NCBI GenBank assembly: GCA_964016885.1
Contig: OZ024740.1
Coordinates: 441,874,001 to 441,938,000 of the forward strand
DNA: 64,000 bases
Direction of reading: 5' to 3'
Source of the DNA: Eledone cirrhosa
Taxonomy: Eukaryota
Shown here piece after piece: positions 8,710 through 42,098 of the stretch (positions are counted from its first letter, which is position 1; the number at the start of each line of letters is the position of its first letter). Made by a program: the position numbers and the translations under genes. The notes beneath the pieces were generated by a model, which made no database searches, was not told where the DNA came from, and was given only the letters and a program-made list of their open reading frames with translations.

Positions 8710-9500
8710 CAAGTTATTCCGGGTTGAATGGGAGGTAACCACAGTAAATAAGGTACTCAATACATAGCAGAGTATAAAAGTTTTAATATAGAAGAGCTTC
8801 TACAGGACTAGAACTGTTTCATTCGTGAGAAATCATGAGGGAGCTGGCTGTCCAAGTAAATAGTGGTATCTATATCTTTTCTTTTCTGGTGGTAGGAGAG
8901 GGTGGGGATTGGGATGGGTGGAGGGCATTGGTTTTAGGATTTAAAGAAAAGGGAGGTCATTAAAAGCTAATTCTTTAAAGCTATAGTATTAACAAAGGCA
9001 AAGAGAATACTGTAAACAAAATCATATTTGGAATACCAATCCTAGTTTATCACTTAGACTAACAATGGCTGTAAGACAGGTGTCTACAGGATGGGTGGGG
9101 TTCAATGGTTTAAAGAAAAGGGGAATTTTTAGAAACTAATTCTTTAAGGCTGGAATAAGGGTGACAAAGGCAGAGAGGGTTCGATCAACAGATTCAAGTG
9201 TTGGGGTGAGACCCCTTATTGTGAAGTTTCTCTTAATATATATTCCAGGTGTCGACAACTACATTCACACACTCGCCCACTTACACACGTGCACACACAT
9301 ACACGCACGCACACACAGGCAGGCACACACACAACAAACATACATAATGGTACATACACACATACACGTATATATACATACACACAAATATGTGTACATA
9401 CATACGTCCACACACATATACATATACATATATACACACAGATACACACATACATATACATATATATATATATATACATACATATATATATACATATATA
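8710..9500 (-). mobile_element. PLE-associated non-coding element, family A
   Basis: Reverse complement of 10570-11283 and 19700-20385. Ends at (TA)n and carries an HHR motif. Confidence 0.75.
8795..8845 (-). ncRNA. Type I hammerhead ribozyme, family A (core mutated to CUCAUGA)
   Basis: AGCTCC-CTCATGA-TTTCTCACGAAT-GAAA-CAG.TTCTAGTC.CTG-TA-GAAGCT on the minus strand. Confidence 0.7.
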
Positions 9501-10046
9501 CATATATATATATACAAACACATAAATATATACACACACACACGCTCTAATACATACACACGCATACACACATTCAAACGTACACATATACACGCATATA
9601 TATACACACGTACGCACATATATAATACACACATACATACATACACACACACACATATATACACATTATACATATATATATGTATATATATGTGTATATG
9701 TGCGTGTGTGTGTGTATGTATATATGTGTGCGTACGTGTGTATATATGTATATGTGTACGTTTCAATGTGTGTAAGCGTGTGTGTGTATATATATATATA
9801 TGTGTTTGTATATATATATATATATGTATATCTGAAATATAAGTATGTATACGTACATACATATATGTATACAGACGTACAGTAGTATGTATATATATAT
9901 ATATACATGCACACATATATATATGTACGTATGGATTCACCGAACATTTATTATAGTGCTCGGTGTGTTTGTAAACAAACATCCCGAATTAAACCGTACA
10001 GTGTCTAGCAACCATCGTTGCTCATTTGTTCAACACTGACAAAGGA

Positions 10047-10089
10047 ACGCTGTACTAGTTTCAAGCTTATTAGCTATCGTCAGCAACGT
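10047..10089 (-). ncRNA. Minimal type I hammerhead, family B (inverted copy)
   Basis: Reverse complement of 10262-10304. Confidence 0.8.
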
Positions 10090-10261
10090 ATACCTTCCTG
10101 CTAGATGATTGAACGTCTGAAAGTATATACTTTCCTTATGCATATTAACGGCTGAGCAGCCTAATTAGGCCTAATTAGGCTGCAAATTAGGCTGCTCAGT
10201 CGTTAATATGCATAAGGAAAGTATATACTTTCAGACGTTCAATCATCTGGCAGGAAGGTAT

Positions 10262-10304
10262 ACGTTGCTGACGATAGCTAATAAGCTTGAAACTAGTACA
10301 GCGT
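10262..10304 (+). ncRNA. Minimal type I hammerhead, family B
   Basis: ACGTTG-CTGACGA-T AGCT AATA AGCT T-GAAA-CTAG-TA-CAGCGT: stem I 6 bp, stem II 4 bp, palindromic minimal stem III. Confidence 0.85.
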
Positions 10305-37703: not shown

Positions 37704-40700
37704 AATTCTATATCAACTTAGCGCTCTCCACTTTGGAAAACGAAACATACTACGAAAAGGCTGAACACTACAATCACCAGAAAATTATGAGAAACCTAAA
37801 AAATCTGATCAACCCATACAAAGAAGGACTCACTAACAAGGAATTCAGCTTCATCACAGACTTCACAAGTAAATCCAGCCTTTTCTGCGGTATCCCTAAA
37901 GTACCTAAAAGCGAATTAATAAGTAAGGCATGCAAGGAAGCCACAAACTTAGTCATCAATGTCCCCTCACCTAATAATCTCAAATTAAGACCTATAATAG
38001 CAGGCCCCGCTATTCAGGAATCTCGCCTTATTAACAAATACGGACCCCGTCTAAACACTTCTTCCTAAGACGAACCCACAACATACACCCGTTGACATAC
38101 ATAACTAAATCAGCATACATATCTACATACATTTCTATCCACATATAAACACAATGACATACGTAAACACACATGTTCTATGGTGCAACACAAATATACA
38201 CAAATTCGCATACCTTTTGATGTTTATAGATATACACGTGCCGACACGCACACATACACATACGCACACATGTATTGCACATTGATGGGCACATACATAT
38301 TTGTACACAAGTATCCCATACGGCAGGGTCTAATGGATTCCCCTTGCAGTACGTACAATCTGGACTCACACACACCTTGTTGTTATACAGTATTATACAT
38401 CATTTCACCTCTTTTATTATTTTATTATTGATGTTATTAATGTTCTTTGAGAGAATCGTTTTTGCAAATGACTGAAAATATCGAATAATGTACGCCATTT
38501 TTACCAGTACCACAAAAATACTGGTCCATCCACACACACAAACACACCAACGCATGCACACGCAAACAATAACATACAGACAGATATACACACACACACA
38601 CACACACACACACACACACTTCTCCGTATAAGACAAGAGCTGAAAAATATGTTTCAACATGTTAAAATAACCCCCCGCCCCACACACACACACACACGTA
38701 CACACACATTCCTAGTGACCGATTCATTTTCATTATCACAACAATGAACCGCTTTGCTACACATACACACACATATTTATCTTAATAGACACCTGGACTG
38801 TTGACCTCACAACATGACTGTAACTCAATCAAGCGGAAAAGGACACTCTTCGACAAACCTACATTTCGTGTTTAGACGGGGTGCGTAGTTGTTAAGAAAG
38901 TGAGATTCCTTGCTTATGCGCTGGGTGGGGGTGGAATTATCTTTAAATTTGTAGAGGGGAAAGATTCTAAAGTTGGGATGATTTGGGGCGGCACAGGTAT
39001 CAATGTGTTCACTCAGTGCTATTTTTCTGTATTCCCGTATTTTGATTTGGGATCTATGGACAGTCATGCGTTGGCGGAGGCTTAATTTAGCCTGGCCTAT
39101 GTATTGTTCTCGACAACCTGATCAATTTAATACATATATTAGGTTTTCTGATGCGCATGTGAAATTGTGTTTTACTATAAAACGTCCTTGTTTGAAATAG
39201 AATTCCGAACCCTCTATTAGTTTGATGCATATACCACAGTTGGGTCTATCGCATTGTTTTACTGTGGCTTTCGTTGTTGTGGTTGGCAGTACTTTGGAAT
39301 GTGTTAGGATGTTTTTCATTGACTTAGATTGTCTTTTGCTCTTTATGATATCGTGTGTTCGAAGGATTTGGTTCATTCTATGGTCCTTTTTTAATACAGG
39401 GATGTTCTGGAGGACGGTGTCAAAAGTAGAGCAAAAATCACGAGCACTCTATCTCAAAATCATTTTTGAAAAGCATAAGAAATGCGCAACCTGTGAAAGC
39501 TTAAAACTAAAACTGAATACTAACTAATACCTATTACTAATTTATACTTATTCCTAATTAAACTATTTTTCACTGGGAAAGATTTGTCAGCATTTTCTTT
39601 TCCTTTTTACTAATATATATATATATATAATGAAGGAAATATGGCAAGCAACCAGATGGCCCATAACGCACCAAACTACTCAGTACTTAGGGTAGTAGAG
39701 TGGGTAATAGGAACAAGTATGACCCCGACGAGTGGCTGCATGGCTTCCTAAAGGACAGAAGCCAGGCAGTCGCAGCAAATGGCGCCCTCTCAAAGGAAAC
39801 ACCAATAACAAGTGGGGTGCCCCAGGGGACAGTCCTGGGACCACTACTGTTTTTGGTGGCTCTCTCAGACATGCCCTCTGTAGTACATACAACAACATCC
39901 CTCACTAGCTATGCTGATGACACTAAGGTAGCACAGGCAATCAAAAACCCGGCTGACGCTGCCCTTTTACAGCAGGATCTGGATGCCATATACAAATGGG
40001 CGGAAGAAAACAACATGCAGTTTAATGTTGGCAAATTCCAAGCCCTACAATACAAACCTCCAAACAAACCTGCAAATACAAATATAGTACAACACAACTA
40101 CAGAGCACCAGGAGGGACCGAAATCCCCGTGTCAAAATCGATACGAGACCTGGGCATAGACAAGAGCGATGATGCATCTTTTTCCTCACACATCATGAAA
40201 GTGGCGACAATGTGCAGACGACTCGCTGGCTGGATCTTGAGGACTCTCCGGACAAGAGACCGTGACACCATGTTGACACTATGGAGGACATTTGTCCTAA
40301 GCCGCCTGGACTACTGCTCCCAGTTGTGGTCACCCCATAGTGTCAAACTAACCACGGAGCTTGAGGCAATCCAGCGAAGCTACACCAAGAGGATTGCCAA
40401 GATGAGGGAGACAAGCTACTGGGAGAGGCTGAAGGAACTGAACCTCTACTCCTTGGAACGAAGACGGGAGAGATACGCAGTGATCTACATGTGGAAAATC
40501 CTGGAGGGACTAGCACCAAACTTTGGCATTGGGAGCTGGACCAACCGTCGAACAGGACGTCACTGTGTGGTGCCAAAGGTCCCGTCTTCCACAGCTAGAA
40601 TAAGGAGCAGGTATTGCAATAGCCTGGGATTCAAGAGCCCTCAACTCTTAAACAGGCTGCCTAGGGATCTGAGAGACTTGCATGACGTGGAGGTGGATGT

Positions 40701-40918
40701 CTTCAAGAAACATCTCGACACCTTGTTATCCAGGATCCTGGATGAGCCCTCAGCAAGGCACGAGGGAAACCTAAGGGCAGCAGCAACAAACTCCCTCTTA
40801 CAGCAGTGGCCAACCTATACAGGCTGGAGATAAAATGTGTAGCAAGAAGGGCGGTGCCCCAGCATGGCCTCAGTCGGATGGCTGAAACAAGTAAAAGAGT
40901 AAAAGAGTAAAAGAGTAT
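37704..40918 (+). repeat. About 3.2 kb segmental duplicate of 29946-33250
   Basis: Same order of deleted Neptune, inverted EN, K, E and LINE, with scattered substitutions. Confidence 0.93.
39730..40916 (+). mobile_element. 5'-truncated CR1/L2-group LINE with open RT C-terminal frame
   Basis: Within ORF 39700-40833; uninterrupted YADD-containing frame; same tail as 32062-33248. Confidence 0.9.
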
Positions 40919-41384
40919 ATATATATATATATGTATATATATGTATATATATATATATATATATATATATATATATACATATATATATATATATATACAT
41001 ATATATATACATATACATATATATATATATATACATATATATATATATACATATATATATATATATATATATATATATACATATATATATATATACATAT
41101 ATATATATATATATATATATATATATATATATATATATATATATATATATATACATATATATATATACATATATATATATACATATATATATATATATAT
41201 ATATATATATATATATATATATATATATATATATATATATATATATATATATATATATATATATATATATATATATACACATACATATATATATATACAT
41301 ATATATATATATATATATATATATATATATATATATATATATATATATATATATATATATATATATATATATATATATATATAT

Positions 41385-42098
41385 ATGTAGTAAGAAACAC
41401 AGTAAATCGTGTGTCCAATATTACGAGGGTTGAAAAACCACAATTGTTTGAAATATTTAACCATGAAGGAGACAGAATGATAAAATAAAATTAAATTATA
41501 TTATACAAACCGCCTCAATAACAATTATATCTCTCGGGCAGATTAGGGATTAATCTGTTTCGCCCTGAGTGTGTTTGTAACAGATAATCCATGGGCATCA
41601 TCAGCGAGAGAATCTGATTAAATGCGACAAACACCTAGTACCAACGTTCACACAGAAAAATGAATTCATCACCTCGTGTGCCCTAAGTCGAAAGTGGTGT
41701 GAGTGTATTGGTTAGAAACAACAGTCCAACACACGCAACTTAATAAGCTCACCTCTTGAGGGAGCCGAAATATAAATGAAAGTTAGAGTTAATAACTCAT
41801 ACTGAAACCCTGTAATCAATAAGCTCAAAGTATAAATACCGAGCATTATAATAATATATATGTAGTAAGAAACACAGTAAATCGTGTGTCCAATATTACG
41901 AGGGTTGAAAAACCACATTTGTTTGAAATATTTAACCATGAAGCTGACAGAATGATAAAATAAAATTAAATTATATTATACAAACTGCCTCAATAACAAT
42001 TATATCTCTCGGACAGATTAGGAATTAATCTGTTTCGCCCTGAGTGTGTTTGTAACAGATAATCCATGACCATCATCTAACCAATACACTCACACCAC
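41385..42098 (-). mobile_element. Non-coding partial-tandem element, family L (about 475 bp period)
   Basis: 41385-41602 is repeated at 41860-42077; 23 bp terminal inversion (42076-42098 = reverse complement of 41694-41716). Confidence 0.85.
41531..41610 (-). ncRNA. Type I hammerhead, family L
   Basis: CTCTCG-CTGATGA-tGCCC...GGGC-GAAA-CAGATTA..TAATCTG-CC-CGAGAG. The second copy has canonical GUC but is cut at the core. Confidence 0.8.

Follow-up and report, generated by a model that had tools for sequence, protein, structure and literature searches.

In a 64,000-nucleotide stretch of the genome of Eledone cirrhosa (contig OZ024740.1 of assembly GCA_964016885.1, positions 441,874,001 to 441,938,000 of the forward strand; hereafter, the window), an earlier note had placed ten type I hammerhead ribozymes in short elements lying between (TA)n tracts. 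Six of the ten sites are 3' ends of Penelope-like elements (PLEs) and three belong to tandemly repeated retrozymes devoid of open reading frames (ORFs); both kinds have quite probably been inserted by a Hydra- or Neptune-type protein that joins a reverse transcriptase (RT) to a GIY-YIG endonuclease and starts from two set sites. The key observation is a paired-end rule: with few exceptions, one arm of an inverted insertion ends at the shorter (S) and the other at the longer (L) of two fixed 3' ends.

Families were searched in the same genome, with the best 40 of 669 to 3,881 first-look candidates scored. In seven of the eight families derived from the window, and in further clusters from flanking DNA, insertions end preferentially at two 3' sites, both of them downstream of the ribozyme cut; in family K, the second end is visible only in the flank census. 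The two ends of a family are 34 to 170 nt apart. Single-arm copies use either of them (13 S and 3 L copies in family D, 11 and 7 in E, 11 and 10 in H, 12 and 8 in J), which marks both as start sites. Fixed ends adjoin (TA)4 in 305 of 327 cases, compared with 8 of 30 other ends and a background of 7.5 to 15%. The (TA)n tracts thus do form the shared landing pad that had been proposed, and (TA)n targeting is common to coding and non-coding families. The 5' junctions show no enrichment near the cut site: 6 of 108 lie no more than 12 nt from it, versus 5.9 expected. This argues that the templates were uncleaved tandem or circular RNAs.

Parsing of 271 loci, 7 of which had no scorable arm and 8 of which were duplicates, left 256 inserts, including 101 inverted ones. 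Both ends lay at fixed sites in 83 of the inverted inserts, of which 76 were S+L, 5 were S+S, and 2 were L+L (P = 5e-16 versus 50%); when families C and A', in which the query forces the L end, were excluded, the rule held in 48 of 55 (P = 7e-9). As (TA)n reads alike on both strands, independent choice of ends predicts 50% S+L, and as this target is palindromic, the asymmetry must originate with the RNA and protein. Before two fresh families were examined, a share of more than 80% S+L was predicted in writing. In the 310-bp retrozyme R310, all 11 inverted arrays that were read (of 12 among the matches listed, with 54 further matches outside that list) were S+L and had TA at all 22 ends; in a family taken from the random stretch L371, all 12 inverted inserts, read by eye, were S+L. 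These counts bear on the idea that inverted pairs are two separate insertions into one tract and that tandem units grew later by satellite-like unequal crossing over. Nested insertions are indeed frequent in the window, and local amplification is the explanation of tandem arrays preferred in bioRxiv 10.64898/2026.07.22.740005. Separate insertions, however, predict 50% S+L; the arms are joined without an intervening TA tract and with microhomology; and dispersed R310 arrays of 1 to 13 units are 100% identical over the query. This explanation is regarded as very improbable.

Each arm can hold sequence that its partner lacks. In 37 inserts of linear families, the 5' extent is greater for the S arm in 14 (3 of which show no overlap of the arms at all) and for the L arm in 11, and 12 are near-symmetric. 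Most arm junctions carry 1 to 7 nt of microhomology or a short filler; at locus L060, the 16 nt surrounding the hammerhead palindrome and cut site are repeated twice more to form the filler, which looks like slippage of the RT there. An S arm that extends further 5' than its L partner is not obtainable by self-copying of a single cDNA, as would happen if one cDNA folded back and copied itself, the endonuclease resolved the product at another AT-rich site, and asymmetry arose by later deletion of the centre. Such fold-back is unlikely, although several points favour it: the 12 near-symmetric junctions, several of them at natural hairpins; variants shared by the two arms; and the attribution of the tail to endonuclease resolution in PMC8557442. 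In favour of the two-cDNA mechanism set out below, divergence is lower between arms than between loci in families D (1.2 versus 2.2%) and J (2.6 versus 5.0%), with no difference in C. What speaks against fold-back is that S arms exceed L arms by up to ~1.1 kb (L148 and L154), that non-overlapping arms exist (L033, L321, and positions 24789-24915 of the window), and that unequal arms occur within R310 arrays that are 99.8 to 100% identical. In addition, a cDNA of a linear element started at S has no template for the tail, yet S+S inserts are rare and single-arm S copies are common. A fold centre fixed at the 5' edge of the ribozyme, also considered, had been suggested by a palindromic query and was dropped once an unbiased query was used.

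According to the twin-start reading favoured here, the RT/GIY-YIG protein would nick a TA tract on both strands and start one cDNA at each of the two set sites on the RNA. The cDNAs would be truncated independently and then joined head to head, and single-arm copies would reflect the loss of one of them. Retrozymes would borrow this protein in trans, with circular or long tandem RNA as the template, which could explain arms of up to 13 units. The ribozyme would produce unit-length or circular RNA, with the ends of the insertion set independently of it. A more specific version, in which PLEs and their retrozyme parasites undergo programmed twin priming by one ribonucleoprotein with two RT sites at two fixed RNA positions, circles are rolled for several turns, and R310 represents a currently active 310-nt circle, is somewhat favoured as well. 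If true, one rule would give the inverted pseudo-long terminal repeats (pseudo-LTRs), the one-sided tail, and the multimeric arrays.

In many coding families (A, A', C, G, H, K, and clusters from flanking DNA), the sequence GAGT(A/G)(C/T) is found 42 to 72 nt before the L end and not before S ends, which makes it a candidate protein-binding signal. Families B and D have look-alikes, CCGTAC at 47 nt and GCGTAC at 43 nt, respectively. A broader tail motif, [GC][AC]GT[AT]C[CT], was chosen after the fact and has been dropped, as only GAGT carried over to several other families.

Several points weigh against the twin-start mechanism. Seven of the 83 inverted inserts are S+S or L+L, and 18 more, with an end at neither fixed site, were excluded from the count. 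Pairs were counted only if the partners lay within 60 bp of each other in the reference, hence the few pairs from families A and H, and all family samples consist of the best-scoring 20 to 40 matches per family and are thus biased to young copies. The near-symmetric junctions (12 of 37 in linear families) are what fold-back predicts, and later deletion of palindrome centres could mimic S arms that reach further. In vitro, the two strands did not differ in their start site (PMC11167929). The exact GAGT motif was not found before the L ends of the retrozymes D, J, and R310. Finally, the evidence for the mechanism is genome sequence throughout, in which the helper of B, D, and R310 was not identified.

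Sites 10262 (family B), 17170 (D), and 41531 (J) fit the sequence definition of non-LTR retrozymes, and judging from their copies, these three of the ten are true self-propagating non-coding families. The window copy of B, with a 430-bp unit, is an inverted insert at 9832-10567 (short-end arm 9832-10166 on the minus strand, long-end arm 10181-10567 on the plus strand); a B-like sister element, ~78 to 80% identical to B, lies at 11284-11607 (plus strand). Family D is represented at 16991-17601 (minus strand) by 1.27 units of a 482-bp ORF-free repeat and family J at 41387-42077 (minus strand) by ~1.45 units of an ORF-free repeat of 472 to 475 bp. The longest Met-started frame in the three families has 92 aa. 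Two or more motifs at unit spacing were seen in 23 of 39 D loci, 9 of 40 B loci, and 4 of 39 J loci (overlapping loci unmerged), and the 32 distinct D inserts include dimers and trimers. No PLE frame was found upstream of D in 30 loci, nor a sense endonuclease within 2.6 kb of any of 121 D matches. The corresponding endonuclease counts were 3 of 182 for B and 5 of 110 for J, all of them beyond TA tracts save for one fusion. In this case (L100:1289-2761), a Hydra-type PLE ORF with its 3' untranslated region (UTR) abuts 1.6 units of J with no TA tract in between, and beyond the J array the PLE 3' UTR is not resumed. This single fusion is compatible with template switching and could possibly name the helper of J. 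A switch from family A to a B-type element at or near stem III of both hammerheads was observed at window position 11283 and in L133.

The R310 unit contains a 43-nt hammerhead with CGCG as III. One array, at L359:1407-5153 (near 124.21 Mb of another contig, C4), comprises 9.4 units and an inverted 2.7 units, with nine units identical; another copy (L361:2878-3483) lies ~5 kb to the left of the window. An R310 arm has between 1 and 13 units, it varies which of the two arms is longer, and the dispersed arrays, 100% identical over the query, reach 13 plus 5 units. R310 is probably active now or was so very recently.

That the whole set is a community of tiny non-coding elements, as the earlier note proposed, is not supported. 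Tiny elements between (TA)n tracts is a fitting description of the window copies, but in most cases a longer element has been truncated. Six sites (11853, 21184, 23004, 26066, 33358, and 53688) are best described as 5'-truncated 3' ends of coding PLEs: their families have variable 5' ends and run upstream into ORFs for GIY-YIG or RT plus GIY-YIG, which is the very alternative, truncation of a full PLE, that the note had named as contrary to its proposal. In family C (11689-12175; short arm 11689-11847 on the minus strand, long arm 11846-12175 on the plus strand), an inverted 3' end of a coding Hydra-type PLE, a GIY-YIG frame was found upstream in loci L025 and L042. Family E (20709-21446, with a second copy at 22303-22934) is the inverted 3' end of a coding PLE whose linker is of Neptune type; it has RT plus GIY-YIG upstream in L156, L161, and L166. 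Family F is a 5'-truncated Hydra-type PLE on the minus strand (22941-24737) with a GIY-YIG ORF at 23344-24366. Family H, the 3' end of a coding Hydra-type PLE (26008-26633, minus strand; ORF-bearing copy at 33753-36040), showed upstream PLE protein matches in 14 of 24 loci, 12 of them in sense. Families A' (33254-33493, inverted) and K (53482-53896, plus strand) are both 3' ends of Hydra-type PLEs whose 3' UTRs measure 2.2 kb, that of A' being microsatellite-rich; RT plus endonuclease was found upstream in L355-L357 for A' and 2.2 kb upstream in L286 for K.

The broader proposal that all ten sites mark self-propagating non-coding ribozyme elements, moved by Neptune/Nematis enzymes and building up the (TA)n content, does describe B, D, and J, and B and the A' 3' UTR hold TA/TG-rich stretches of their own. 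As a general account it is nevertheless highly improbable, given the six sites that lead into ORFs, linkers that are mostly of Hydra type rather than Neptune/Nematis, and a (TA)n content of the window below that of the genome sample. The window has 102 (TA)n tracts, covering 4.0% of its length, versus 5.7% in 39 random 10-kb stretches of the genome taken at round coordinates, so the (TA)n content that had been called extreme is not. The same stretches (390 kb) contain 20 type I hammerhead motifs, versus 0 or 1 in each of eight shuffles. The window is therefore typical of the genome in both motifs and (TA)n. This sample corresponds to ~50 type I hammerheads per Mb, or ~150,000 if extrapolated to the 3.0-Gb assembly, and the hammerheads of the fetched loci group into 41 sequence clusters; the genome is very rich in type I hammerheads.

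The hammerheads themselves were sought with a type I descriptor (stem I, CUGANGA, stem II, GAAA, III, UH). A strict scan gave 7 matches in the window and none in 30 dinucleotide shuffles, and a looser tier gave 6 versus a mean of 0.05 over 60 shuffles. Eight of the ten sites are type I hammerhead motifs, seven of them intact in the window and the eighth, 41531, real as a motif of its family. Those on the plus strand are at 10262-10304 in B (mirrored on the minus strand at 10047-10089), 11853-11960 in C, 21184-21226 in E (second copy at 22672, plus strand), 33358-33408 in A' (mirrored at 33275-33325 on the minus strand), and 53688-53754 in K; those on the minus strand are at 17170-17253 in D, 26065-26202 in H (second copy at 33808-33949, minus strand), and 41531-41611 in J. 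The window copy of the last one has U16.1 changed to C, with the core intact in 18 of 25 family contexts. The two sites that did not hold up are 23004 and 26754. At 23004-23043 (family F, minus strand), the hammerhead-like motif has a weak, bulged stem I and a non-canonical core, TTGAGAA, in all four copies seen; this core could presumably be read as a compensated U3-A8 hammerhead variant. At 26754 (minus strand), a core and stem II are present, and stem I is absent at all 12 core-readable loci (of 20), so this site fails as a type I hammerhead across its family.

Stem/loop III had been described as mostly palindromic, and CTAG, CAATTG, CCGATCGG, CGATCG, and CGTACG were indeed verified; the palindromes at 21184 (GAAC) and 53688 (TATGTA) are imperfect, and III is a hairpin stem at 33358 and 41531. 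Covariation, for which the note had asked, is evident in eight compact motifs from several families, including B: both sides are changed in 10 of 14 pairs, in stems I and II and the palindromic III, 96% of cells are paired, and the score was matched by none of 500 shuffles. The rows came from a core-only scan, with stem I pairing guiding their choice. Two observations weigh against the motifs. The Rfam scan showed no hammerhead family among the 150 matches listed of 263, which were mostly microRNA matches to palindromes, and single-strand folding beats shuffles (z below -2) at only two of the ten sites. Minimal PLE hammerheads without helix III, along with their dimeric cleavage, have been described (PMC6155905); in bioRxiv 10.64898/2026.07.22.740005, eight of nine Xenopus dimers failed to cleave in a test.

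As to the candidate helper proteins, Neptune-type enzymes, of the Neptune/Nematis kind suggested previously, are not the majority. Most endonuclease pieces, along with the ORF at 23344 and family C, carry a CxCx5C linker, whereas a Neptune-type linker was seen only in family E (CIDKKCIIC) and in the PLE fragments at 12983-15170 on the minus strand, which comprise an RT (DKG, Pfam RVT_1) and a GIY-YIG domain (linker CGRPNCGIC). Pfam named one of eight proteins, the RT at 13551. The helpers are likely to be mainly of Hydra type by their motif marks, with Neptune-type proteins also present. One candidate is a frameshifted Hydra-type RT plus GIY-YIG PLE at 54935-56294 (plus strand), whose family has open 709-aa ORFs elsewhere with RWR, DKT, CxCx5C (CNCRNRxDC), and YIG, the marks of the Hydra clade. 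In L432 and L434, upstream of the 709-aa ORF, only a degenerate hammerhead-like core, CAGAAGA, was noticed in the terminal repeat of this family, and the descriptor scan found no hammerhead of its own. One RT piece gave 32,674 first-look candidates, with a 713-codon open frame at six listed places, and 504 homologues are at ~40% identity. Section 11 of PMC8557442 reports insertion of the Hydra clade into (TA)n.

Three further families have shorter records. Family A, a sister of A', has an arm at 8710-9460 (minus strand; its two ends are separated by 68 bp, and this copy has a mutated core) and others at 10568-11283 and 19697-20390 (both plus strand); no parent ORF was found upstream of its loci. 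Family I, of at least 1.3 kb and with variable 5' ends, lies at 26668-27960 on the minus strand, with its stem I-less core near 26754-26790; no parent was found among its loci. The family G micro-insert (24789-24915, 127 bp) consists of two non-overlapping arms of ~55 and 73 bp from ends 81 bp apart; it has no hammerhead, no core was found upstream, and a longer form is at 33539-33731. The 3' UTRs of A' and A (L355-L358; window 9345-9830 and 10568-10830) include hundreds of bases of TA/TG/TATG microsatellite, which moves with the element and receives further insertions, such as B inside A at 9832-10567.

Besides (TA)n, the window is filled with fragments of PLEs, other non-LTR elements, and DNA transposons and with many long palindromes. 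Those at 36319-36878, 57581-58186, and 60779-61750 have no hammerhead match, and 36368-36800 is similar to 27959-28193, 31757-31948, and 39427-39618. A 3.3-kb segmental duplication with 97% identity (29946-33263 and 37704-40932) carries Neptune-type and other non-LTR fragments. From their translations, segments 252-1939, 42975-47744, and 19059-19373 are presumably hAT-like transposase pieces, a long minus-strand non-LTR element, and a Helitron-like helicase fragment, respectively.

The elements themselves are of known kinds. According to PMC7229834, retrozymes occur as circular RNAs and are probably helped by PLEs, and a PLE origin of vertebrate retrozymes has been proposed, with pseudo-LTR kinship shown in Xenopus (bioRxiv 10.64898/2026.07.22.740005). 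Retrozymes as PLE parasites are in print already, as is TA targeting, and the general picture drawn in the earlier note is largely so. Like the metazoan non-LTR retrozymes of these two sources, the families described here consist of ORF-free tandem units (310 to 482 bp, GC content of 35 to 39%) with one type I hammerhead per unit and are dispersed as monomers to multimers. Unlike those reported there, they bear the PLE insertion signature of (TA)n, two fixed ends, and two inverted arms that are both multimeric, and the hammerhead motifs of B, D, and R310 are minimal ones with a palindromic III instead of canonical ones. No paper on octopus or cephalopod retrozymes surfaced in the literature search.

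The coding elements resemble the Hydra-clade PLEs of PMC8557442 (section 11) in having RWR (RWK-like), DKT, a CxCx5C linker, a C-terminal GIY-YIG domain, a hammerhead in the 3' repeat, and (TA)n insertion, an assignment made by motifs. They differ from those described there in their 3' UTRs of up to 2.2 kb, some of them microsatellite-rich, their very high copy number, and tails of 60 to 170 nt versus 30 to 40. The same review describes inverted 5'-truncated copies with a TA bias and a tail often at one end only and terms the origin of PLE tandem and inverted insertions undefined. In vitro, the Poseidon PLE protein of Anolis nicks and extends both strands of an AT-rich target, and the tail is defined by two internal sites at which it starts, with ribozyme cleavage dispensable (PMC11167929); the twin-start reading agrees with this behaviour. 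These two RT start sites, as here, are downstream of the ribozyme cut; the main text of that paper does not tie them to inverted insertions or report different sites at the two ends of one insertion, and it leaves the steps after priming open.

In L1 twin priming, the two target strands prime two cDNAs, yielding a 5' inversion joined by microhomology, and the second primer anneals at chance internal sites. In the Eledone elements, in contrast, the second cDNA has a fixed start, and the arms are often overlapping or several units long.

A literature search that was poor in older papers on PLE structure found none that counts the pairing of ends, applies it to retrozymes, or derives twin priming from it. 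The paired-end rule is new relative to the literature found, and the tail at one end only (PMC8557442) is its qualitative form. The S+L rule, which applies to families with and without ORFs, sharply restricts from the genomic side how PLE integration can work. It also provides direct evidence for retrozymes in the PLE integration pathway, which had earlier been argued from co-occurrence and sequence kinship. Programmed twin priming, in turn, would explain both the inverted repeats of PLEs and their one-sided tail.

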